From the sequence record NC_024210.1: a stretch of DNA of 47,112 nucleotides; one strand, written 5' to 3'. A program made the position numbers and the translations under genes. The DNA comes from Escherichia phage e4/1c. Of the stretch, positions 2,764-46,811 are shown one piece after another. The stretch's first letter is position 1; each line of letters starts with the position of its first letter. The notes below the pieces were generated by a model. The model saw nothing but the letters and a program-made list of their open reading frames with translations. It had not been told where the DNA came from and searched no databases.

Positions 2764-3930
2764 ATGGTAAAAGCAGATAGCTACGCAAACATCTTTCTTA
2801 ATGGGAGTGATGGTAGCGAGATTTACGGAAAGCTTGGTGGGCTTGGGCTAACAGCTCCAGCGCAGCTTGAGCAGCTTTACGTCAACAGCGCACTGGTTCG
2901 CCGAATCATTGATATCGTGCCGGAGGTTGCACTTGGTGCTGGCTTTAACATCGAAGGCATCGGCGATGAAGGTGCTTTCTGGTCTCGATGGGATGATTTA
3001 GACCTTTCAGATAGCGTAATTGACGCCTTGGCGTGGGCAAGGTTATACGGTGGCGCAGCTGTAGTAGCAATCGTTAAGGATGGTAGGGCACTAACTAGCC
3101 CAGCTCGTGAAGGTGCGGAGCTCGAAACCGTTCGCGTATACGACCGGCAGCAAGTAAAAGTGCAGACTCGCGAGGAGAATCCACGAAACGCTCGATTTGG
3201 TAAGCCATTAACTTACCGCATCACGCCAAATGGTTCAGCTACGTTCTATGATGTACACTACACACGTTGCCATATCATTGATGGCGAGCGAGTGCCTAAC
3301 AATTTACGTCGTAATAACGATGGTTGGGGCGCAAGCGTGCTAACTAGTGACTTAATCGACGCGATTGACGACTATCAGAACTGCGAGAGACTGGCTACTC
3401 AGTTACTGCGTCGTAAACAGCAGGCTGTATGGAAAGCTAAGGGCCTTGCTGACTTGTGCGATGATTCGGATGGATTTGGCGCGGCTCGTTTACGTCTGGC
3501 TCAGGTAGATAATAACAGTGGCGTTGGTCAGGCTATCGGGATTGACGCGGAGAGTGAAGAGTACAACGTTCTCAACTCAGATATTGGCGGGATTGATACA
3601 TTTCTGAGTCAGAAGTTCGATCGAATCGTTGCTCTGAGCGGCATCCATGAAATTATTCTCAAGGCTAAGAATACTGGCGGTGTATCAGCTAGCCAAAATA
3701 CGGCTCTGGAAACTTTCTATGGTTACGTTGACCGCAAGCGCAAGGCTGAATTACTGCCCCTTCTTGAGTTCCTGCTTCCATTCATTGTAACTGAGCAGGA
3801 ATGGTCAGTAGAATTTAACCCTCTATCGCAGATTAGCGACAAGGATAAATCTGAGATTCTTGAGAAGAACGTCAATTCAGTTGCCGCATTGATTGCAGCT
3901 GGAATCATTGTTGCGCGCAATTTCAACTGA
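2764..3930 (+). CDS. portal protein
   Basis: 389 aa from ATG 2764 with RBS GGAGAAA; position after terL; size and acidic/aromatic content typical; ORF-track start 2713 would span the terminator. Confidence 0.7.
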   Translation: MVKADSYANIFLNGSDGSEIYGKLGGLGLTAPAQLEQLYVNSALVRRIIDIVPEVALGAGFNIEGIGDEGAFWSRWDDLDLSDSVIDALAWARLYGGAAVVAIVKDGRALTSPAREGAELETVRVYDRQQVKVQTREENPRNARFGKPLTYRITPNGSATFYDVHYTRCHIIDGERVPNNLRRNNDGWGASVLTSDLIDAIDDYQNCERLATQLLRRKQQAVWKAKGLADLCDDSDGFGAARLRLAQVDNNSGVGQAIGIDAESEEYNVLNSDIGGIDTFLSQKFDRIVALSGIHEIILKAKNTGGVSASQNTALETFYGYVDRKRKAELLPLLEFLLPFIVTEQEWSVEFNPLSQISDKDKSEILEKNVNSVAALIAAGIIVARNFN

Positions 3931-3974
3931 GGTTAAGATTGGCGAAGGCTCAATTCAAACGGAGGTTGTAATTA

Positions 3975-4739
3975 ATGAATCAGAAGACCCGCTGGATGTA
4001 TCCGCAAACAATTGAGAGCCAGATTAACCGCAGCCTTTTGGTTGCGGTATCTGAACTTATTGAGCAAATGAAGTTATCTGCAAAGAGGCTAAAAATTGAC
4101 ACAGCGCAGGAGATTGAAGAGGAAGATTCAGACCTTTCAGATGTAATCTCAGCGCTGCTATCTGGTTTTGTTTCCACTCTGCCTGCGCTGGCACTAGCAA
4201 TATATCGTTATAACTCGGCGCAATTCCTTAAGGTGGCCAACAACTCCGGAGGTAAGAATAATCCTGTAGTTCTTGCGCTAGGATTGTATGGTATTAACGC
4301 GGATGAACCATGGTGGCTCGACACCAGGAGCTCCTGGATTGTTGGCACGCAGTTAAGTGCATCAAAGCTGCTAAACAACATCAAGGATGATTTCATAAAC
4401 AACGCCATTACTGCGCAGGCTGGTAACACTGTTGACCTTGATGATAGATACCGAATCTACAGAAAGAGAACGGCAAATATCGCTGCTGGAATTACAGGGT
4501 CTCTAAACTCAAACCTTATGCGGAGAAGGCTTGAAGATGCCGGTGTATCTCAGTATGTTTGGCGTGGTAGACTTGACGACAAAGAGCGACCATCTCACGC
4601 TTTGCGTGAGGGGGTTAGCTTTAAATCAGATGGTTCGGACGCTGGAAAACTTGACGGCCTTGCGACATTCCCCGGTCAGCAATACGGGTGTCGTTGCTGG
4701 GCTGTTCCTAAATGGGAGAATTTAATTAATGAAGAGTAA
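3975..4739 (+). CDS. head morphogenesis protein (SPP1 gp7 / Mu F-like)
   Basis: 254 aa; C-terminal motif LREGVSFKSDGSDAGKLDGLATFPGQQYGCRCWAV typical of this family; follows portal. Confidence 0.7.
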   Translation: MNQKTRWMYPQTIESQINRSLLVAVSELIEQMKLSAKRLKIDTAQEIEEEDSDLSDVISALLSGFVSTLPALALAIYRYNSAQFLKVANNSGGKNNPVVLALGLYGINADEPWWLDTRSSWIVGTQLSASKLLNNIKDDFINNAITAQAGNTVDLDDRYRIYRKRTANIAAGITGSLNSNLMRRRLEDAGVSQYVWRGRLDDKERPSHALREGVSFKSDGSDAGKLDGLATFPGQQYGCRCWAVPKWENLINEE

Positions 4740-5838
4740 AATGCGTTATGATAGCGCCAAGGTAAAAGCCCATTTCGATGAGAACGGGTTTCTCGTGGAC
4801 ACTCCAGTGGTTGCTCGCGTAGGTGTACAAACCTACTATATGCCAGATGGTTCAGAGCGCCGAGAGTTCCGTCCGGCTTCAGAGGTTTTTAAAGCTGACT
4901 CCTTGCAAAGCTACCAGGGTAAGCCACTTACTCTGGGGCACGTTGTGGTTAACTCTGAAAATGCTAAAGAGGTTGTCGTTGGTTCTGTATCTGGATCAGC
5001 CATGCGTCAGGATTCGGCAGTGGTTGTTCCTCTTACCGTTTACGACAAGGAGGCAATTGAGAAGGCAAAGTCTGGCGTTGCTGGTGAGCTCTCGGTTGGA
5101 TATAACACCATTGATGTTGAATCTCCTGGTTGGGGCAGCAATGAAACAGGTGAGTATAAGCTGGACGGAGAATACGCAAGTCAGGATGAGATTCCTGCTG
5201 ATTGGGTACGCTTTGATGCACTGCAAACAAATATCGTTGTGAACCATGTCGCTCTTGTATATAAAGGTCGCGCAGGTATTGCTAAACTCAATCTGGACGC
5301 GGAACAGGAAAACCCGTATACTGATACCGTTCAATCAAATAAAGAGGATAAATTGATGATTAAGATTAAACTGGATGGCGAGAAGGAGTTCGAAATCGCC
5401 CCGGAAGTTGCTAAGCACATCGAGGCTGTTAAGGCTGATGCAGAGCAAGCAAAAGCCAAAGCTGACACCCTCGAAGCCGAGCGTGATGCACTGAAAGCTA
5501 AAGTTGATGGCATCCCAGCCGAAATCGAAGCTGCTGTAGCCAAAGCTAAAGCTGACGCTGACGAACTGGCCGCTCTGGTTGCTACCGCCGCAGAAGCTGG
5601 CGTTAAATGTGATGGTCTGGATGCTAAAGCAATCAAAGTTGCTTACGTTAAAGAAGTATCTGGCATTGAAGTTGCTGAGAAATCCGATGCGTACATCGAT
5701 GCGGCCTTTGATATCGCCAAATCTTCTGATAAAATGGCTGAAGCCCGTGTAGCAGTTGCTGGCGCGGAAAAATCTGATGCAGCACCGGAAGTTAAGACTC
5801 TTAACCCGCGTGCTCGCCTCGCTAAATTGAAAAAATAA
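4729..5838 (+). CDS. capsid scaffolding protein (globular N-domain plus Ala/Lys/Glu-rich coiled coil)
   Basis: C-terminal half is low-complexity AKA/EAE-rich heptad-like sequence; position between head morphogenesis gene and capsid genes. Confidence 0.55.
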   Translation: MKSKMRYDSAKVKAHFDENGFLVDTPVVARVGVQTYYMPDGSERREFRPASEVFKADSLQSYQGKPLTLGHVVVNSENAKEVVVGSVSGSAMRQDSAVVVPLTVYDKEAIEKAKSGVAGELSVGYNTIDVESPGWGSNETGEYKLDGEYASQDEIPADWVRFDALQTNIVVNHVALVYKGRAGIAKLNLDAEQENPYTDTVQSNKEDKLMIKIKLDGEKEFEIAPEVAKHIEAVKADAEQAKAKADTLEAERDALKAKVDGIPAEIEAAVAKAKADADELAALVATAAEAGVKCDGLDAKAIKVAYVKEVSGIEVAEKSDAYIDAAFDIAKSSDKMAEARVAVAGAEKSDAAPEVKTLNPRARLAKLKK

Positions 5839-30532: not shown

Positions 30533-30557
30533 ATAAAAAAACCTCCCGAAGGAGGTT
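30533..30557 (-). terminator. rho-independent terminator after primase gene
   Basis: minus strand cctcc-ttcg-ggagg followed by T8. Confidence 0.7.
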
Positions 30558-31482
30558 AGCTATTCAATAAGTCACTCGCTTTGTATATTCGCTTCCTTAC
30601 ACCTGACTTGAATGAGTACTCATCATTAGGGATTACCACATCAATATTACGATCATCAGCAACGGCGAGTAAATCGAGAGAATGAAGAGTGCATGCAATA
30701 CGTAACTTGGAGTCTTTGAGCGCATAAGCAACCATTTCCATGTTGTAACTGGAGTAGCAAACAAGCACACAGCGGTTCCTAGTAGCGAGATGAACACGAT
30801 AGCCGTCAATGAAATTATCGACCAGATAAGCGTACTCATTATCCTTAAAGGAACCAATAACAGCCACAGACTGACGAGTGTAATCTTTTGCAGCATAACT
30901 AACATCCTCCTCTTCATTTATAAACATTACATTGCACATTTCTTCTGATATACCATCACTATAAGCCATGAAGCAAGGTATTGCATGGATTAATTCACCG
31001 GATTTTGTCTTACCAACATCAAATCCAAACTCGCTATAAATACCCTCGTATGTACTGAGCGGTGTTGATTCTACTCTTTCTGTCCTTTCCATTATTTCTA
31101 CGCATCTTTCGTGGTCAATCTGTGCGCCCATCTTGTATGGTGATGTTCTTGATGCTCTGATATTTGCGCTTTTTATTACTTCAACGGGAACCAGGTTTAG
31201 CCAGTCACCAAGAGCATTAATTGATTCACTAAAAGATTCACCTCTCAGCTTTTGAACCCACAAAATTCCATCTCCTGATCCGCATTGGTTGCAAATGATG
31301 CCACCATCACCAGGCTCACTAACCTTATCAGTCCAACGACTCCTGTCATTACCTCCACAATACAAGCAAGGTTGGTGTTTCTTTGTCTTGAAAAAATTGG
31401 GGTCAGCGCCGCAAATCTGAACCATTGCATCAGCCCACAAACCTTTCATCTTCTGCAAAACTTCTTTCTTGTCGTGATTCAT
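30556..31482 (-). CDS. putative DNA primase (zinc-binding plus TOPRIM-like)
   Basis: 308 aa; N-terminal Cys cluster PCLYCGGNDRSRW ... GGIICNQCG; adjacent to helicase region. Confidence 0.5.
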   Translation of the reverse strand: MNHDKKEVLQKMKGLWADAMVQICGADPNFFKTKKHQPCLYCGGNDRSRWTDKVSEPGDGGIICNQCGSGDGILWVQKLRGESFSESINALGDWLNLVPVEVIKSANIRASRTSPYKMGAQIDHERCVEIMERTERVESTPLSTYEGIYSEFGFDVGKTKSGELIHAIPCFMAYSDGISEEMCNVMFINEEEDVSYAAKDYTRQSVAVIGSFKDNEYAYLVDNFIDGYRVHLATRNRCVLVCYSSYNMEMVAYALKDSKLRIACTLHSLDLLAVADDRNIDVVIPNDEYSFKSGVRKRIYKASDLLNS

Positions 31483-31534: not shown

Positions 31535-32008
31535 TTACTCTTTAGCTTTTCGTGCTGCTTCGTTTGCTGCTTTAATTTTTCGCCATGAGCGACACTCTGG
31601 TTTGGTGGCTAATTCAGCATCAGTAACCACGCGTAGCATGTGTCGCTTTTTGCAACGAAGAGTCAGAGGCTTACCGTTGCCGTCAAACTGAAGGTCTGGC
31701 CGGCAGAATGTAGCCCTAAATCCTTCACCAGTTCGCTTATATCGATTATGTGCAAGTTGAGCGCCGCGGGCTGAAATCATTCCTCGAGTGCACCACTCTT
31801 CCACGGTCTGGCGAGTAACCTTTAACTGCTTAGCGAGATTTGCCTTACTGCCATAGAAGTCCAATACAATCTCAAGTCGAGCCCTTAGTCCAGCCCTTAC
31901 TTCATCCTTTAATACATAGTACCCTGAAGGTCGTTTGCGTGGCTTTTTATCTTCCTTTCGGATGGTTCCGTTATTGCCGTTAAGAGTACGTTTATCGACT
32001 TGATTCAT
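31535..32008 (-). CDS. HTH DNA-binding protein, candidate transcriptional regulator
   Basis: 157 aa from ATG 32008 (RBS GAGGTGA); HTH-like SKANLAKQLKVTRQTVEEW; basic; divergent from helicase gene. Confidence 0.5.
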   Translation of the reverse strand: MNQVDKRTLNGNNGTIRKEDKKPRKRPSGYYVLKDEVRAGLRARLEIVLDFYGSKANLAKQLKVTRQTVEEWCTRGMISARGAQLAHNRYKRTGEGFRATFCRPDLQFDGNGKPLTLRCKKRHMLRVVTDAELATKPECRSWRKIKAANEAARKAKE

Positions 32009-32022
32009 TTTTATCACCTCAA

Positions 32023-32101: not shown

Positions 32102-34045
32102 ATGACTATGCGCTTGAAAACAATACAGAAACAGATTGAAGAAATGGGTGAAGACAAGATCAAAGAGATTCAAACTAAATTCACCTCATATAATGGCATG
32201 ATTCCTTATAGCTATCAGTGTGTAATGTATAATGAGATTGCCAAGCGTATTGGTAAATATAAGCACCCGTTCATCGCAATGGCTTCAGTATCAGCTGGTA
32301 AAACTCTAGTTTTTGCCATGGTCGCTAAGCGCTGCTCTGAGATTGGTTTGCCAATGCTTCTACTTGCTCGTCAGGCTGAGCTTGTTAGTCAGAATGCTTC
32401 TGAGATTTCAGATTATGGTGTGCCTAACTCCGTTTACTGCTCAGGTCTTGGAATTAAGTCATCTTATTTTCCTGTAATTGTAGGCTCTGAGGGTACAGTT
32501 GTTGGTGGCCTTGATAAGGCGCTTGGTGACTTCTGTCCTGCTGTTGTGGCAATAGATGAGTGTCATCATCTGGATGATCAAGATATTGCAGAAGCAATAG
32601 ACAATAATGAGACATCACAGCAAGCTAGAGATAAAGGCCGGAGCCAGTACACGATAATTCTCCTCACGTTAATGGAGAGATGCCGCGCTAAGTATGGGCG
32701 TGAACTTAGGATATTTGGCCTGACTGGCTCTCCTTTCCGCGGAACAACACCAATTGTTGTGGAGAACCTTAAGGAGCTTGGGTTCTGGCGTGAAACGGCG
32801 ACTAATATTGATACCAACTATCTGGTTGAGTTCGGCTCTGTTGTACCCACAAATTTCGGGTCTACTGATGGTGTTGGCTATGATCTGTCTGAGTTTGACA
32901 CTTCAGCAGATGATGGTGTGCAGGACTTCACGAAATCTCAGCTAGAGGCAATGGAGAAGAAGATTCAGCAGTCAGGCACAATGACAGCAGAGATAATGAA
33001 GAAGGTATGGTTGGCAGCAAAAGATCGTAACGGCGTTCTTGTAACTTGCGCAGGCGAGCGACACTGCAAGGAGGCCGCAAGCTACCTTCCAGAGGGTGAG
33101 ACTTACTGCATAATTACTGGCAAAACTGGAGAGAAGCAGCGCAAGGAGCTACTGGATAAGTGCTTCTCTGGGGATATTAAATTTTGTTTTCAAGTTCAAG
33201 CTCTGACTACTGGTGTGTCAGTTCCACCATGGGATACTAGTGTAATTCTTCGCAAGATTGGTAGCCTCACGCTCCTGGTTCAGCTACTTGGTCGAGGAAT
33301 GCGTAAGCTTAAGAAGCTCCATGAAGATAAAGGAATGGTCAAGAATGACCACCTTGTATTGGATTTTGCTGGAACTATGGATTCAATGGCATCCCTTTAC
33401 TTCAACCCAATACTTGAACAGGCCCAGTATCAGCTACGCAAAAGTAATGGTAAAGAGATGAAGCAGTGCCCTGTTTGCGGCACTGAAAATAGCTTCTACG
33501 CTCGTCGCTGTATGCGTGTTGATGAGAACAATAAAAGGTGCGAATATTTCTGGGTTAGCCGCACATGTGAAGACCAAAAAGACCCGAGGACAGGAAAGGT
33601 TACCGTGAAAGGCTGTGGAGTTCAGAATGACGTTGCAGCTAAGATTTGTAGAGGTTGTGATTGCACCCTTCTAGATCCGAATCTTAAGTTAAGCGGAAAA
33701 CATTACAGAAAAAATGATTGGTTTGACGTTGTGGATTTCAAGGTTGGACTAACAAAGAACCAATCAGGAATCATCTACAACTACGTCCTTGATGATGGCA
33801 TGGGTGGGACATTCAAAGCTCATGAGGTTTTCTTTGTAGAGTCTGACCATCGAGTATGTAAAACGCTCTGGTTGAACAATGGAATTAAAGGTCACGTAGT
33901 CGACATGAACGCTAAGCGATATATGGCTGCATATCGCAATGCTCGCAAGATTATGGAGTATGCGCAGTACATCCATGCTCCTAAGAGGGTAACTCACCGC
34001 AAGACCGCTAAAGGTGGCGATAATATTGCTAATAAGGAGTTCTAA
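32102..34045 (+). CDS. superfamily II DNA helicase with C-terminal zinc ribbon
   Basis: 647 aa; Walker A SVSAGKTLVF, DECH box VVAIDECHHL, motif VI QLLGRGMRK, C-terminal CPVCG ... CRGCDC. Confidence 0.8.
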   Translation: MTMRLKTIQKQIEEMGEDKIKEIQTKFTSYNGMIPYSYQCVMYNEIAKRIGKYKHPFIAMASVSAGKTLVFAMVAKRCSEIGLPMLLLARQAELVSQNASEISDYGVPNSVYCSGLGIKSSYFPVIVGSEGTVVGGLDKALGDFCPAVVAIDECHHLDDQDIAEAIDNNETSQQARDKGRSQYTIILLTLMERCRAKYGRELRIFGLTGSPFRGTTPIVVENLKELGFWRETATNIDTNYLVEFGSVVPTNFGSTDGVGYDLSEFDTSADDGVQDFTKSQLEAMEKKIQQSGTMTAEIMKKVWLAAKDRNGVLVTCAGERHCKEAASYLPEGETYCIITGKTGEKQRKELLDKCFSGDIKFCFQVQALTTGVSVPPWDTSVILRKIGSLTLLVQLLGRGMRKLKKLHEDKGMVKNDHLVLDFAGTMDSMASLYFNPILEQAQYQLRKSNGKEMKQCPVCGTENSFYARRCMRVDENNKRCEYFWVSRTCEDQKDPRTGKVTVKGCGVQNDVAAKICRGCDCTLLDPNLKLSGKHYRKNDWFDVVDFKVGLTKNQSGIIYNYVLDDGMGGTFKAHEVFFVESDHRVCKTLWLNNGIKGHVVDMNAKRYMAAYRNARKIMEYAQYIHAPKRVTHRKTAKGGDNIANKEF

Positions 34046-38717: not shown

Positions 38718-39103
38718 TTATTGCAATCACATTGCTGACCGGTTGCTCTGTTATGTCAGCTATCTCTGATTTATTACCGAGTAAGGATGGCATTGAAGCA
38801 ACAGCGCAGGTTGGTGAGTCTAACCAGAAGACGGGCGTTGGATTATCTAGCCAGATAGATAAATCAAGTTCAGTAGAAAGCGATATGCGCAACTCAACTA
38901 ACAGGGACGTAGATTCATCAAGCCAAAAAAAGACCGCTGCTACTGGTCTCTCAGCAGGCACAATAACAGCTGAAAAGATTGAAATTCACAGCACTGAAAA
39001 CTCTGGGGTTGACTCATTGGTCTGGGGTATTCTTGCAGGGTTAGTTTCAGGCTTGCTAACTTACTTCGCTTTAAGATTTGCAGGGAACAAAAAAGGAGCC
39101 TAA
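38699..39103 (+). CDS. unimolecular spanin (u-spanin, T1 gp11-like)
   Basis: N-terminal lipobox LLTGC plus single C-terminal TMD SLVWGILAGLVSGLLTYFAL. Confidence 0.7.
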   Translation: MRVGIIIIAITLLTGCSVMSAISDLLPSKDGIEATAQVGESNQKTGVGLSSQIDKSSSVESDMRNSTNRDVDSSSQKKTAATGLSAGTITAEKIEIHSTENSGVDSLVWGILAGLVSGLLTYFALRFAGNKKGA

Positions 39104-39118
39104 TGGCTCCTTTCTTTT
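39088..39118. terminator. bidirectional terminator between lysis cassette and minus-strand block
   Basis: aggagcc-taat-ggctcct flanked by A-run and T-run. Confidence 0.65.
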
Positions 39119-39452
39119 ATGCGAACAGTTGGTCGTCTGTCATTTCTTTTATGGTCATCATCTCATTAGTGTACTTATCGCTCTCACCTTCAAGGCATCT
39201 GAAGCTAAATTCGAAAGGTCGCTTCGTGCTTCCTTTGCTCCAGTAACTGCCATTAACTCCATCGATGTAACCTTCAGTCATGCATCTTGCCAGAAACTCC
39301 TTTGACGCAGATGATGCAAAGTAACGCGTATTAACTCCAGCTGCCTTAGCCATTCTTTCACATTCTTTGTGGCGGTAAATGAATGCCGCCAGGTGCTGCC
39401 TGTTAAACCTTTCGTAGCTCTCGCAGAACTTGAACACATCAAGGATGAACAT
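39117..39452 (-). CDS. hypothetical protein (111 aa), last gene of ATPase operon
   Basis: 5 nt downstream of ATPase gene stop on the same strand. Confidence 0.5.
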   Translation of the reverse strand: MFILDVFKFCESYERFNRQHLAAFIYRHKECERMAKAAGVNTRYFASSASKEFLARCMTEGYIDGVNGSYWSKGSTKRPFEFSFRCLEGESDKYTNEMMTIKEMTDDQLFA

Positions 39453-39456
39453 TTAA

Positions 39457-41040
39457 TTACCCCAGCAGCCGTGGATTGATATATACCTTGTCACCAATCA
39501 GGCAGGTATAGTTTTTCTCATCAAGCATCGGCAGTAAGTGGTCTTTAATTTTAGCCATAACACCAGCCTGTGACTCGAAAGGTCGAACCTTACGCGCAGC
39601 TTCATAAAGTGAACGCAAACCCACAACTCCTTTACTGTTCTTGCCTTGCTTGATAAGGATATCAATTAACTTGTTCATCTCAGCGTTATCGCCAGCATGA
39701 CCAGCTGCGTTAGCTGAAGATAAGTAAGTCTTACTAAGTTCTTCAAACATCAACAAAGCCTCTTGCATGGTTTCTAGTTCAATCTCCCTGGACTTCTGCG
39801 GACTACCACCATTCTCGTTAAACCAGTTACGGATAGTATGCAGAACCGAAGCGAGGCGAATCACTTGCTTGTCCATTTTACCTAACGCGCCACGAAGCAT
39901 TGTATGTGAATACTTCCCACCATCAGCAAGGTGTGGCTCCATTTCCTGTCGAGCACGGTTAAGGTACTTCATTGCTGAGTTACTAACAGTCAACTTCACA
40001 TCTTGCTCACTCATAATTTCATGAACAAGACGGAAGTAATCAGCCTTCAACGCTCCGTCAATCGGCTCATATGTTGACTCGCCATTATCATCGACGAAAA
40101 CACGCTCACCAAGGAATGACTTTTCACGCACAAGCAAGAAACGTTCGGATACACCAATACCGCGAGCACCAGCATTCATGATTGCGACTATTGTTTCATC
40201 CTGCGCAATTACAGAAATACACCCCATAGCAATAAAGCTCATGTTGTTCTCTGCGTTCGCACGCGCGATAGATACGCTACCAGCATCCCAGGCCTTCAGA
40301 ACAAGCTCGCTGTTAGTTTTCTTCGAGCCATCACCGTAAGTCATACCAAGAAGTGAGTTAACACTTGTCGCTTCATCAGAAATCACGGAGAAGTTACCCT
40401 GGCGGTTGTTGATTCGCGCAAGACCTTCCGGTGTAGTATCAGATACCGGAAACACAATGTCGCACAGCTTTTCTAACTTCTCTTCCAACTCCTCTTTCTC
40501 TTCGAATAATCCAGCCATCTCAGATGGTGACTTCTCTTGCTTCATTTCTTTTGCCAGGGCTGACAATTTAGCCATAATCTTCTTACGGTCACGCTTTCGA
40601 ATCTCATTTAGTCGCTCGGTCTCAGAAATCATTGGTGCGAGTGCAAGTGAGTTAATTGCTGATTTACCAGTTGATGGTGGCTGACTGGTGACTACATACA
40701 GTGATGTTGGTTGTTGAGTTCCGTGATACTCAACCGTAAAGCGACCTAACATAGCTGCCGAGACGCAACCAAGGAAGTGCATATAAGCAGATGATTCAGG
40801 AAACTGAACAGAACGAGCAGTATTGCTTGATAGTTTGCCAACTACATCATAGTCGTTACCCAGCGAGATAACAGGATACTTGTCGCCAGTAGAATCAATC
40901 TCAACCGGAGCTTTCCAGAATGATGCGCTCTGGCGATAACCGTTCGCATTAATAGCAACACGTAAAGGAGTTAATCCATCCTGAGCGGCAACAGCCATTA
41001 CTTGTTCAACAGTCAATTTGTCATCATTAAAATCAAACAT
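39457..41040 (-). CDS. P-loop NTPase with shared N- and C-terminal modules (paralog of 44156..44704)
   Basis: Walker A VTSQPPSTGKSA, Walker B FSVISDEA; N-terminal 42 aa about 70 percent identical to ORF 44156..44704; start ATG 41040 (MFDF) or 41046. Confidence 0.65.
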   Translation of the reverse strand: MFDFNDDKLTVEQVMAVAAQDGLTPLRVAINANGYRQSASFWKAPVEIDSTGDKYPVISLGNDYDVVGKLSSNTARSVQFPESSAYMHFLGCVSAAMLGRFTVEYHGTQQPTSLYVVTSQPPSTGKSAINSLALAPMISETERLNEIRKRDRKKIMAKLSALAKEMKQEKSPSEMAGLFEEKEELEEKLEKLCDIVFPVSDTTPEGLARINNRQGNFSVISDEATSVNSLLGMTYGDGSKKTNSELVLKAWDAGSVSIARANAENNMSFIAMGCISVIAQDETIVAIMNAGARGIGVSERFLLVREKSFLGERVFVDDNGESTYEPIDGALKADYFRLVHEIMSEQDVKLTVSNSAMKYLNRARQEMEPHLADGGKYSHTMLRGALGKMDKQVIRLASVLHTIRNWFNENGGSPQKSREIELETMQEALLMFEELSKTYLSSANAAGHAGDNAEMNKLIDILIKQGKNSKGVVGLRSLYEAARKVRPFESQAGVMAKIKDHLLPMLDEKNYTCLIGDKVYINPRLLG

Positions 41041-41079
41041 TATCATCTCTCTCTAAATGCCCCGAAGGGGCTTGATTAT

Positions 41080-41259
41080 TTACTTGATACGAACTTCAAT
41101 CATCTGACCTTTATGAGGAAGATACAGCTTTGCGCGACCTCTAATCATTACGGTGATGATATTCTCCTTAAGGTCAACGTGAAGTACTTTGCGGAACAGA
41201 GGCCCCATTTTTACCATCATGCCAGGTTTGATGTTTTCGATAGTAGTCATGATATCCAT
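41080..41259 (-). CDS. hypothetical small protein (59 aa), first gene of ATPase operon
   Basis: not in ORF track; MDIMTTIENIKPGMMVKMGPLFRK...; hairpin separates it from ATPase gene. Confidence 0.35.
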   Translation of the reverse strand: MDIMTTIENIKPGMMVKMGPLFRKVLHVDLKENIITVMIRGRAKLYLPHKGQMIEVRIK

Positions 41260-42916: not shown

Positions 42917-42943
42917 GTCTATCTCCTCGCTGTTGATGTAATT

Positions 42944-42987
42944 AATATACCCAATCAGGACTGAATGTTCATTAGCAAAAAGTGCTA
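42944..42987 (-). promoter_or_regulatory. palindrome-type promoter unit (first of minus-strand block)
   Basis: minus-strand TAGCACTTTTTGCTA, 23 bp, TATATT. Confidence 0.5.
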
Positions 42988-43011
42988 TTCGTTCGATTTA
43001 TGGATTGTTGC

Positions 43012-43105
43012 GGATATTGCAATGATTAGATTCACCTTTGCGCACATAGCAATATTGCATCTATTGCAATGATTTTCTGTACTGTTGCGAAAATGGCAAT
43101 GATTG
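43012..43105. repeat. cluster of short palindromic iteron-like sites (ATTGCAATGATT family)
   Basis: TATTGCAATGATT at about 43015 and 43063, GCAATATTGC at about 43049, GGCAATGATT at about 43094. Confidence 0.6.
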
Positions 43106-43179
43106 ATGGATTGATGGAATGAAGGAGGACGCATCAACTGGTTGGTTGGTTTTCTCGCTCGCTCGGAGATAATCATTTG

Positions 43180-43330
43180 TATACGCGTAGTCCGCTGTCT
43201 ACCGATTGTCGACCGTATCCAGATTTACATTTGATACGCCTTGATACAATCCATATACATTAAAACATCCTTATATATAAAGGACTTAGACTATTATTAT
43301 TATTATATATAGTATTATGTATATATGGCG
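43180..43330. repeat. regulatory repeat region B (homologous to 23316-23470)
   Basis: TATACGCGTA plus 60-bp near-identical AT-rich segment shared with region A. Confidence 0.7.
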
Positions 43331-43381
43331 TATCCTTTGTACGCCACTATATAGGTGGGTTTGCTTAAATTTCTATTTTTA

Positions 43382-43398
43382 TTCCTACATTGTAGGAA
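43382..43398. promoter_or_regulatory. perfect 17-bp palindrome TTCCTACATTGTAGGAA with adjacent half-site
   Basis: perfect inverted repeat; half-site TTGTAGGAA repeated at about 43409. Confidence 0.5.
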
Positions 43399-43545
43399 TG
43401 GGACTACGTTGTAGGAAAATATAGGGTGTATCGCCAGAAATGCACTAATAATTTGGATACGGCGAGTACGCCATGACTACATCCAGCAATGAAGCGGCCT
43501 ACGGATGAGAAAATGTAATTATTTATCGAATACATAAAAAATACC

Positions 43546-43574
43546 TTGATATACACGTATCTACTTGCTATAGT
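43546..43574 (+). promoter_or_regulatory. sigma70-type early promoter (TTGATA, 17 bp, TATAGT)
   Basis: canonical spacing; followed by CCATCGAAACG leader and gene at 43614. Confidence 0.6.
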
Positions 43575-43613
43575 CACTCCATCGAAACGCGATAAAAAAC
43601 GAGAGGAATTAAA

Positions 43614-44156
43614 ATGAGCAAGTCAACACTTGGTGAAGTAATTCGATTCATGGCTAAAAAAGCACTCCAGTCAGAGAGCAAGGAGTGCAGAGTTCCAGTT
43701 CGTTCTATATTTAAAGAGGTGCGCGGAGAGGATTACCCAGAGGTTGACGTTAATGAGAAGGATGGATTAAAGAAAACAATTAAAAGTCGATCAATGACTG
43801 AGTTAAAAAACTCATACATTTACAATACAGTTTCACGCATGACTGAGCTGAGAGAAGCGAATGTTAGAGCTAGATATAAATTCATCTGGCTTGATGAAGA
43901 CAAAGAGGAGACAACCCCAGCTGCGTATGACGGTGACGGCGCAGATAAATACTTGGTAATCTATATTGAGAATGGCTCAGTCGAACCCAGGGCAAAGCAA
44001 AAGGAGAAGGCAAAGCAGGAGCAGGCCGCAATCGATAGGTTTAAGGCTCGACTTCTCAAGCTATCACCTAACGTGCTGGAGTTTGAAGGCGATGAGCTGA
44101 CTGGCGCAGTTAAGGCTATCCGCATGTATCAAGAGATGATCAAGGAGTTTAACTAA
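43614..44156 (+). CDS. hypothetical early protein (180 aa)
   Basis: RBS GAGAGGA; first gene after promoter. Confidence 0.5.
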   Translation: MSKSTLGEVIRFMAKKALQSESKECRVPVRSIFKEVRGEDYPEVDVNEKDGLKKTIKSRSMTELKNSYIYNTVSRMTELREANVRARYKFIWLDEDKEETTPAAYDGDGADKYLVIYIENGSVEPRAKQKEKAKQEQAAIDRFKARLLKLSPNVLEFEGDELTGAVKAIRMYQEMIKEFN

Positions 44157-44704
44157 TGTTTGATTTCGACGAAGATAAGTTAACTGATGACCAGGTGATG
44201 GAAGTCGCCAGGCAAGATAACCTGCCGCCACTTCGTGTGGCAATCAATGCTAATGGATACCGCCAATCATTCAAGTTCTGGCCGAGCGCCGAAGAGATGC
44301 TGTGCGTCAAGTTGAGCTACAAATACGGCGTCGTAGTGCATAAAATTAAGCACTTATGCGGCAATACAGGAATGCTTTACGTGAGCCAGCTATACCGGCA
44401 GATCAGAGAGGTCCAGCCATTCGTTGGTCGTGATGACATATTCAACGACCTTAGTAATATCATTCTGCCGTCACTCCAGGACGCCGGAATCACATGCCGG
44501 ATTGGCGATCAGGTGTTTGCGCATCCGTACCTGGTGGAAATGGATGAACGAGACGTGTACAGATGGTGCAGTCAGTACCTATCCGACGCACCAAGCTCAC
44601 ACTACGTGCGACCGCAGACAACAATCCATGGCTATGATGCCGATGAGGTGGAGAAGGCCATCCAGTTCTACCGGAAAGCGAAAGCTCTCCTGAATGGTGA
44701 ATAG
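44156..44704 (+). CDS. short paralog of P-loop NTPase gene (N- and C-terminal modules only, no ATPase core)
   Basis: MFDFDEDKLTDDQVMEVARQDNLPPLRVAINANGYRQS matches N-terminus of ORF 39457..41040; C-terminal LY..R.V.PF...LP.L...TC.IGD.V..P also shared. Confidence 0.6.
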   Translation: MFDFDEDKLTDDQVMEVARQDNLPPLRVAINANGYRQSFKFWPSAEEMLCVKLSYKYGVVVHKIKHLCGNTGMLYVSQLYRQIREVQPFVGRDDIFNDLSNIILPSLQDAGITCRIGDQVFAHPYLVEMDERDVYRWCSQYLSDAPSSHYVRPQTTIHGYDADEVEKAIQFYRKAKALLNGE

Positions 44705-46735: not shown

Positions 46736-46811
46736 GTTCTGCTGGCGTAACAGGATAACGCAGAGACCTCCTAAGTCTCAGTTACTGGTTCGAGTCCAGT
46801 GCGGAACGCCA
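46736..46811 (+). tRNA. tRNA-Arg (anticodon CCT), CCA encoded
   Basis: manual cloverleaf: acceptor GTTCTGC/GCGGAAC (one G-U), D-arm GCGT-AACAGGATA-ACGC, anticodon stem GAGAC/GTCTC with loop CTCCTAA, T-arm ACTGG-TTCGAGT-CCAGT, discriminator G then CCA. Confidence 0.7.

Follow-up and report, generated by a model that had tools for sequence, protein, structure and literature searches.

A core-less paralog of the DUF3987 helicase in Escherichia phage e4/1c

Sequence record NC_024210.1, the 47,112-nucleotide (nt) window analysed here, comprises the complete genome of Escherichia phage e4/1c, a member of Rogunavirus in the Drexlerviridae (T1-like phages). Two of its genes encode related proteins: the long one a helicase, the short one a protein that keeps both end domains of the helicase without the ATPase core. 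This pairing is real, and the relationship has apparently not been described so far. Both open reading frames (ORFs) exist as the initial annotation, made from the sequence letters, had given them, and their divergent orientation is confirmed, with 3.1 kb between them. The long gene belongs to a leftward operon of small genes, close to its end, and the short gene is second in a rightward operon. The two genes and their modules are as follows (aa, amino acids; H, helix; E, strand).

39457..41040, minus strand: helicase gene (long gene), 527 aa; DUF3987, superfamily 6 (SF6), MCM-like; stop codon at 39457-39459
40897..41040, minus strand: helicase N module, residues 1-48; three-helix bundle (H11-21, H25-33, H36-41), motif PLRVAINANGYR
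40657..40680, minus strand: Walker A, PPSTGKSA, residues 121-128, checked by translation
40369..40386, minus strand: Walker B, VISDEA, residues 219-224, checked by translation
39460..39690, minus strand: helicase C-terminal winged helix, residues 451-527, from DSSP and hhalign (99.3%)
44156..44704, plus strand: core-less paralog gene (short gene), 182 aa; PHROG 7327, function unknown
44156..44299, plus strand: N module of the short protein, residues 1-48; three helices as in the helicase N module
44318..44536, plus strand: winged helix of the short protein, residues 55-127; H-E-H-H-E-E (55-122 in the model)
44537..44701, plus strand: tail of the short protein without helicase counterpart, residues 128-182 (55 aa); a linker, then a conserved helix

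Two common modules, one at the N terminus and one a winged helix (WH), tie the proteins together. BLASTP aligns residues 1-48 of both with 33 of 48 positions identical (69%, E = 1e-19), and residues 463-526 of the long protein with 64-127 of the short one, ungapped, with 20 of 64 identical (31%, E = 9e-10). Comparison of the two family alignments by hhalign gives 99.3% probability over 74 columns (E = 2e-20; short protein 57-129, helicase 455-527), and each protein also hits the PHROG profile of the other family (phrog_7327 with the helicase, E = 4e-52; phrog_2373 with the short protein, E = 1e-16). In the AlphaFold2 (AF2) models, the N-module helices fall at identical positions in both proteins. 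The 31% of the e4/1c WH pair makes it the most diverged among the full-length pairs compared. In related phages the short-protein WH is 46-73% identical to that of their own helicase, which places the homology of this module beyond doubt. The two proteins are thus true paralogs, as initially proposed; the significance of these matches, and the profiles that link the two families, speak against chance similarity or unrelated families. The alignments cover the N and WH modules only and the model of the short protein shows no alpha/beta core, in agreement with the view of a paralog devoid of the ATPase. From the short paralog, helicase residues ~49-450 (linker, AAA+ core and lid) have been lost; only the two peripheral domains are retained, and a tail with a conserved amphipathic helix at its end has been added. 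The initial annotation differed in detail. Its figure of about 390 extra residues in the helicase becomes about 400. The similarity that it saw in the last 50 residues stands, but in the short protein the module is internal (residues ~55-127), followed by the 55-aa tail, a third module absent from that description.

Nucleotide divergence between the copies had been described as mostly synonymous. This holds for the N module, where the 48 codons comprise 13 identical, 20 synonymous and 15 non-synonymous ones, 34 of the 56 nucleotide differences fall at third positions and the synonymous rate (dS) is saturated. It fails for the WH module, in which 44 of the 56 differing codons are non-synonymous. 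The accompanying claim that both copies are under selection is upheld by ratios of non-synonymous to synonymous rates (dN/dS): 0.03-0.06 for the helicase, indicating strong purifying selection, and 0.2-0.5 for the short gene, where it is about ten times weaker. Concerted evolution or gene conversion of the N modules was considered and rejected, as the two are 61% identical in nucleotides with saturated synonymous sites, and in other genomes the N module of the short protein shares only 16-18 of 45 residues with that of its own helicase. In a neighbour-joining tree of WH modules (crude and midpoint-rooted), all short copies form one clade separate from all helicases, which weakly suggests a single origin of the paralog rather than repeated independent ones.

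The long gene encodes the replicative helicase of the phage and is already known, annotated and ordinary in kind. Its product matches Pfam DUF3987 (PF13148) at E = 2e-42 over residues 81-433 (145.9 bits against a gathering cutoff of 27), as well as PHROG 2373, 'DNA helicase'. This provides the family that the initial annotation had left unassigned: DUF3987, the SF6 replicative helicases with an MCM-like AAA+ fold. The start codon chosen there, ATG 41040, is also the preferable one, with GAGAG about 7 nt upstream and homologues of 527 aa. Both Walker motifs stand after translation and contain invariant family columns: among 32 homologues P121, P122, G125, K126 and S127 of Walker A are invariant, as are S221 and E223 of Walker B, and I220 and A224 are at least 90% conserved. 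Across GKS (125-127) and DE (222-223), all positions are invariant in these homologues but D222, which is substituted in three.

The AF2 models of both proteins are monomers. That of the helicase is confident, with a predicted local distance difference test score (pLDDT) of 89 and a predicted template modelling score (pTM) of 0.87. It predicts a three-helix N-terminal bundle (residues 11-41), a linker, the AAA+ core, lid helices and a C-terminal WH (451-521). The core features a long helical hairpin after the P-loop and is nearest in fold to MCM, at sequence identities of just 7-19% to the MCM and ORC/Cdc6 fold matches. In the predicted WH, DSSP assigns H451-468, E472-474, H475-482, H494-508, E512-515 and E518-521, i.e., an H-E-H-H-E-E order. 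This domain is basic, with an isoelectric point (pI) of 9.4. The N module is almost invariant among Rogunavirus helicases, and W42 is invariant across the entire helicase alignment.

The short protein is identical (100%) to the NCBI entry 'hypothetical protein [Escherichia phage e4/1c]' and matches PHROG 7327 over its full length (E = 1.7e-86; its residues 1-182 align with positions 1-179 of the 179-position profile). PHROG 7327 carries no annotation, and its tie to the helicase is visible only as the profile cross-hit. Searches of Pfam (DUF3987 included), NCBIfam and PDB sequences returned no match for the whole protein, and Pfam returned nothing above threshold for the isolated N, WH and tail pieces; a WH_PARP12 hit to the isolated modules (E = 4e-4) was set aside as sub-threshold, at 20.6 bits against a cutoff of 27. 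The AF2 model (pLDDT 85, pTM 0.70) contains no alpha/beta core and no P-loop, so this helicase paralog is itself not a helicase. Its bundle and WH are nearest in fold to the lid and WH of ORC/Cdc6, at 7-13% identity. Membership of that family was rejected, since no AAA+ module precedes the lid and WH. In ORC/Cdc6, moreover, the bundle beside the WH is the AAA+ lid, whereas the bundle that appears to pack by the WH in the short protein stems from the helicase N terminus. WH domains in MCM and ORC/Cdc6 mediate regulation, recruitment or origin contact. The short protein is acidic (pI 5.4), and the third, 'recognition' helix of its WH has a net charge of -2, with a wing of charge 0. Charge alone is not decisive, and on these values its WH would more likely bind protein than DNA.

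The tail consists of a low-confidence linker (pLDDT below 50 at residues 145-154) and an amphipathic helix, residues 162-179, whose sequence YDADEVEKAIxFYRKAKxLLNGE is the most conserved motif of the family. No counterpart was found in the helicase by BLASTP or hhalign, and a regular-expression search over all ORFs of the window located the motif in the paralog alone. A resemblance between the tail and the C-terminal helix of the neighbouring DUF7174 protein was dropped as chance, being one residue out of register. Some paralogs (P0015, P0030, P0103 and P0280) carry the tail motif twice in tandem (...EVEKAIEFYRKYDEDEVEEAMQFYRSYS). Others, in Sf12, phiEB49, P0243 and P0244, have a different tail, ending in ...KKKYLLTGK. 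From its sequence, the tail behaves like an exchangeable peptide motif.

The short family comprises more than 200 clusters of intact 175-190-aa ORFs, with 40-76% identity to the e4/1c protein, and its alignment shows three conserved modules and 15 invariant columns. The query matches 744 phage records, most of them via the helicase N module, and about 105 of these contain a full-length copy. Synonymous divergence differs sharply among the modules. Between e4/1c and AHP42, dS is 0.04 for the N module, 0.76 for the WH and 0.22 for the tail, and between AHP42 and GCA_040351755 the same modules give 1.10, 0.055 and 0.13. The gene is therefore mosaic, with modules exchanged between phages. N modules of at least two highly dissimilar types circulate, beginning MFDF... 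and MINFE..., and neither tracks the helicase of its own genome.

Reduced forms of the gene are frequent. In Rogue1 (L031, 1103-1189) the paralog is a 28-codon in-frame remnant, MFDFSEDKLTDEQIEKLKRKKKYLLTGK, annotated as Rogue1_004 and similar to Rtp rtp2. Here, residues 1-14 of the N module and the final 14 residues of an alternative tail are fused at a shared DEQI, and the remnant still overlaps the stop codon of the DUF7174 gene. This collapse indicates that the short gene is dispensable. Tail-less 140-aa forms (L008, 8671-9093; L012, 10001-10423), a 111-aa form without the N module (L011, 1079-1414) and, in metagenomes, 51-82-aa fusions in which the beginning of the N module runs straight into the tail (P0255, P0264, P0266) are also found. 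Taken together, the evidence shows a gene that is selected but non-essential. A hidden Markov model (HMM) search of 1.84 billion representative proteins gave 49 hits and no independent architecture carrying the N, WH or tail modules. Nearly all hits belong to the short family, the T1-like helicases or fragments of either, and the remainder are a few odd or garbled ORFs. A BFVD fold search recovered the same set of proteins and no annotated relative. As the modules are confined to this phage group, their partners are probably specific to T1-like phages.

The short gene follows a gene for a DUF7174 protein in the operon that departs from the divergent intergenic region. The features of this segment are listed below.

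42917..43613, no strand: divergent intergenic region, ~700 bp, separating the leftward (helicase-side) and rightward (paralog-side) operons
43008-43100: four exact palindromes TTGC-N4-AT-N-GCAAT, at 43008, 43038, 43055 and 43085, in a 47-nt tandem pair
~43258-43330: AT-rich stretch with TTA and TATA runs, between the palindromes and the rightward promoter
43382-43395 and 43404-43417: near-perfect 14-nt hairpin, after the AT-rich stretch
43546-43574, plus strand: best sigma-70-like promoter in the intergenic region, just upstream of the DUF7174 gene
43614..44156, plus strand: DUF7174 gene, 180 aa, PHROG 4841 (Pfam DUF7174, E = 2e-46); first gene of the rightward operon

The ATG of the short gene overlaps the stop codon of the DUF7174 gene by one base (TAATG), with a Shine-Dalgarno sequence, AAGGAG, 8 nt upstream. 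In every related locus checked, the DUF7174 gene lies directly upstream of the paralog or its remnant, and it overlaps every intact paralog or adjoins it without intervening sequence. In this arrangement the short gene is always translationally coupled to the DUF7174 gene. Because the best sigma-70-like promoter sits just upstream of the latter, early expression of the short gene is likely. The DUF7174 protein of e4/1c is 96.7% identical to that of Rogue1 and 68% to that of JK06, a pattern unlike that of the wider region and a further sign of dense recombination in the early region.

All exact matches to the palindrome motif in the genome fall within 43008-43100. With at most one mismatch nine matches are observed, a number reached in none of 100 shuffles. 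The position of the cluster is conserved in related phages, including Sd1 (L021), which is without the paralog. The palindromes are a candidate operator or origin iteron set, and together with the AT-rich stretch and the hairpin they resemble an origin with a putative unwinding element.

Members of the DUF3987 family provide a context for the long protein. Kazlauskas et al. 2016 (PMC4889955) describe DUF3987 proteins as SF6 replicative helicases, distant relatives of MCM that bear a winged helix-turn-helix at their C-terminal end and are usually partnered with a primase. In a second study (PMC11724360), a PriCT-DUF3987 protein, AgaPH, is a 5'-3' helicase that binds its own primase-polymerase; ATP-dependent unwinding of DNA as a ring oligomer has been shown only for this distant relative. 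The e4/1c helicase resembles the family in its Pfam domain, Walker A and B motifs, MCM-like AAA+ fold and C-terminal WH, and in the small helical domain before the core. Unlike AgaPH, its N domain is a 45-aa bundle specific to the Drexlerviridae, with no Pfam match and no PriCT. A primase is encoded in the same genome, as a separate DnaG-type gene ~8 kb away that is neither fused nor adjacent to the helicase gene.

30556..31482, minus strand: primase gene, 308 aa; DnaG-type, Zn-ribbon of primase-helicase type

This gene matches Pfam Zn_Ribbon_Prim (E = 8e-10), its AHP42 orthologue is annotated as DNA primase, and its product is a candidate partner for the helicase N module.

In the reading that we favour, tentatively and with a probability of roughly 45%, the short protein is an accessory modulator or adaptor that uses the docking modules of the helicase. 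In this model, it would be an early product of the first rightward operon, alongside the DUF7174 protein. Without an ATPase core it would be unable to hydrolyse ATP or enter the helicase ring. The peripheral domains of this helicase class would act as docking modules, the N-terminal one contacting primase and the C-terminal WH serving regulation or recruitment, and the short protein would occupy those surfaces on partners that the N bundle and WH of the helicase use. The phage primase, a component of the host replisome and the helicase itself are candidates for such partners, and the C-terminal helix may bind a further one. Such a protein would modulate helicase loading or replisome assembly, or serve as an adaptor in them, without being essential, and would work either as a competitor (dominant-negative) or as a bridge. 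That this is a real, selected gene is supported by its more than 200 intact clusters, its dN/dS, the strong Shine-Dalgarno sequence and the one-base overlap of stop and start. Several observations weigh against an accessory modulator. The N module of the short protein does not co-vary with that of the helicase in its own genome (16 of 45 residues identical in ERZ27269262), which fits poorly with one co-evolving common partner, unless only the conserved PL[RK]VAI[NS]ANGYR core matters. Fast evolution, module shuffling and frequent loss also characterise genes for host interaction or anti-defence more often than components of the replisome.

These same traits lead to the less likely view that the short protein is a helicase mimic, serving as a decoy for a host defence sensor or effector or as a poison for the helicase of co-infecting related phages. 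An accessory gene heading an early-looking operon full of small unknown genes, evolving at a dN/dS about ten times that of the helicase, encoding an acidic product and repeatedly lost or truncated would be accounted for by such a role, as would the independent swapping of its modules among phages, evident from the N and WH dS values (0.04/0.76 and 1.10/0.055). Decoy or competition fits the evolutionary behaviour of the gene better than modulation does. However, the defence-system models of PADLOC gave no match for the short paralog, nor for the helicase, the DUF7174 protein or the 111-aa protein encoded beside the helicase; the paralog has no annotated relative, and no literature was found tying T1-like helicases to a defence trigger. 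Furthermore, the helicase N module is nearly invariant and so bears no mark of an arms race there, and dN/dS does not clearly rise above 1 except in the short tail segments. The specific proposal that the protein mimics the two exposed end domains of the helicase and is deployed early as an immune decoy or anti-competitor weapon is doubtful.

Two further explanations turn on DNA binding and on decay. The short protein might use its WH to bind the DNA recognised by the helicase WH, for instance the four palindromes, and thereby control the divergent promoters or origin firing. The operon of the short gene does start beside the palindrome cluster and the AT-rich stretch, with the palindromes 0.5-1.1 kb upstream, and the helicase WH is basic. 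Such a role as regulator or origin factor is nevertheless improbable, given the acidic third helix of the short WH and the low pI of the whole protein, the conservation of the palindromes in a phage that lacks the paralog, and a motif that remains constant while identity between the short and the helicase WH varies between 31% and 73%. A Cro-like regulator is also encoded elsewhere (31535-32017, by Pfam hits below the gathering score). It is very improbable that the gene is a functionless, decaying remnant of a duplicated helicase gene. The truncated and collapsed versions in several lineages (140 aa, 111 aa, 51-82 aa and the 28 aa of Rogue1) point that way, but they stand against the intact ORFs of the family, its three modules with their invariant columns, dN/dS well below 1 with dS saturated between distant copies, a conserved Shine-Dalgarno sequence and coupling to the upstream gene, and a confident AF2 model.

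An accessory modulator would have parallels among truncated relatives of viral replication proteins, where a full-length replication protein is accompanied by a smaller one that has its interaction or DNA-binding module in common, lacks a catalytic part and modulates the larger form; e4/1c shares the pairing of such a full-length and a core-less protein. Examples include polyomavirus small t and 17kT relative to large T, papillomavirus E8^E2 relative to E2, and T7 gp4B relative to gp4A. In phage P4, Cnr acts on the alpha primase-helicase and is an unrelated small protein. The polyomavirus, papillomavirus and T7 short forms come from the same gene as the long form, through splicing or internal starts. 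In contrast, e4/1c shows an unusual arrangement, in which the short form has a diverged gene of its own in a different operon, which has kept both end modules of the helicase, lost the middle and gained a tail. The literature searched on DUF3987, helicase escape mutants of Drexlerviridae, Rogunavirus replication and T1-like primases does not describe the paralog, and no core-less DUF3987 paralog is mentioned in the excerpts of PMC4889955 and PMC11724360.

T1-like phages are common laboratory and industrial contaminants as well as phage-therapy candidates, and their replication initiation is poorly understood. The paralog sets apart just the two peripheral domains of an MCM-like helicase from a phage, and so offers a natural tool for finding their partners, be it primase, host replisome or origin. 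A modulator of helicase loading would represent a new means for a lytic phage to tune its replication, and a decoy would represent a novel type of protein for anti-defence or for competition between phages.

Elsewhere in the genome, the replication set was assembled from comparison with AHP42 and from direct profile scans. In addition to the helicase and primase it includes a DEAD/ResIII helicase and, taken from the AHP42 annotation, Erf, SSB and an exonuclease. The remaining features are a member of this set and the gene next to the long helicase gene.

32102-34045: DEAD/ResIII helicase gene, part of the replication set
39117..39452, minus strand: 111-aa gene directly downstream of the helicase; PHROG 2794, function unknown

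The 111-aa gene is the last before a bidirectional terminator-like hairpin at 39092-39113. On the other side of the helicase gene, a GC-rich hairpin, GCCCCGAAGGGGC, occupies 41059-41071, between position 41080, where an upstream 59-aa gene stops, and the start of the helicase gene at 41040, and could be an attenuator or RNA-stability element within the leftward operon. The records nearest to e4/1c are the Rogunavirus phages AHP42, JK06, AHS24, C119, phiKP26 and Rogue1, with AHP42 and JK06 nearest over the wider 39-45 kb region. In the JK06 record (3458-5049) the helicase is annotated as three ORFs, JK_55, JK_54 and JK_52, probably owing to a frameshift or sequencing error in this old record; its splitting into several ORFs explains the annotation 'DNA helicase (x2)' in JK06. 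A single tRNA-Arg (anticodon CCT) lies at 46736-46811 in the early region, and the same is found in AHP42 and Rogue1.

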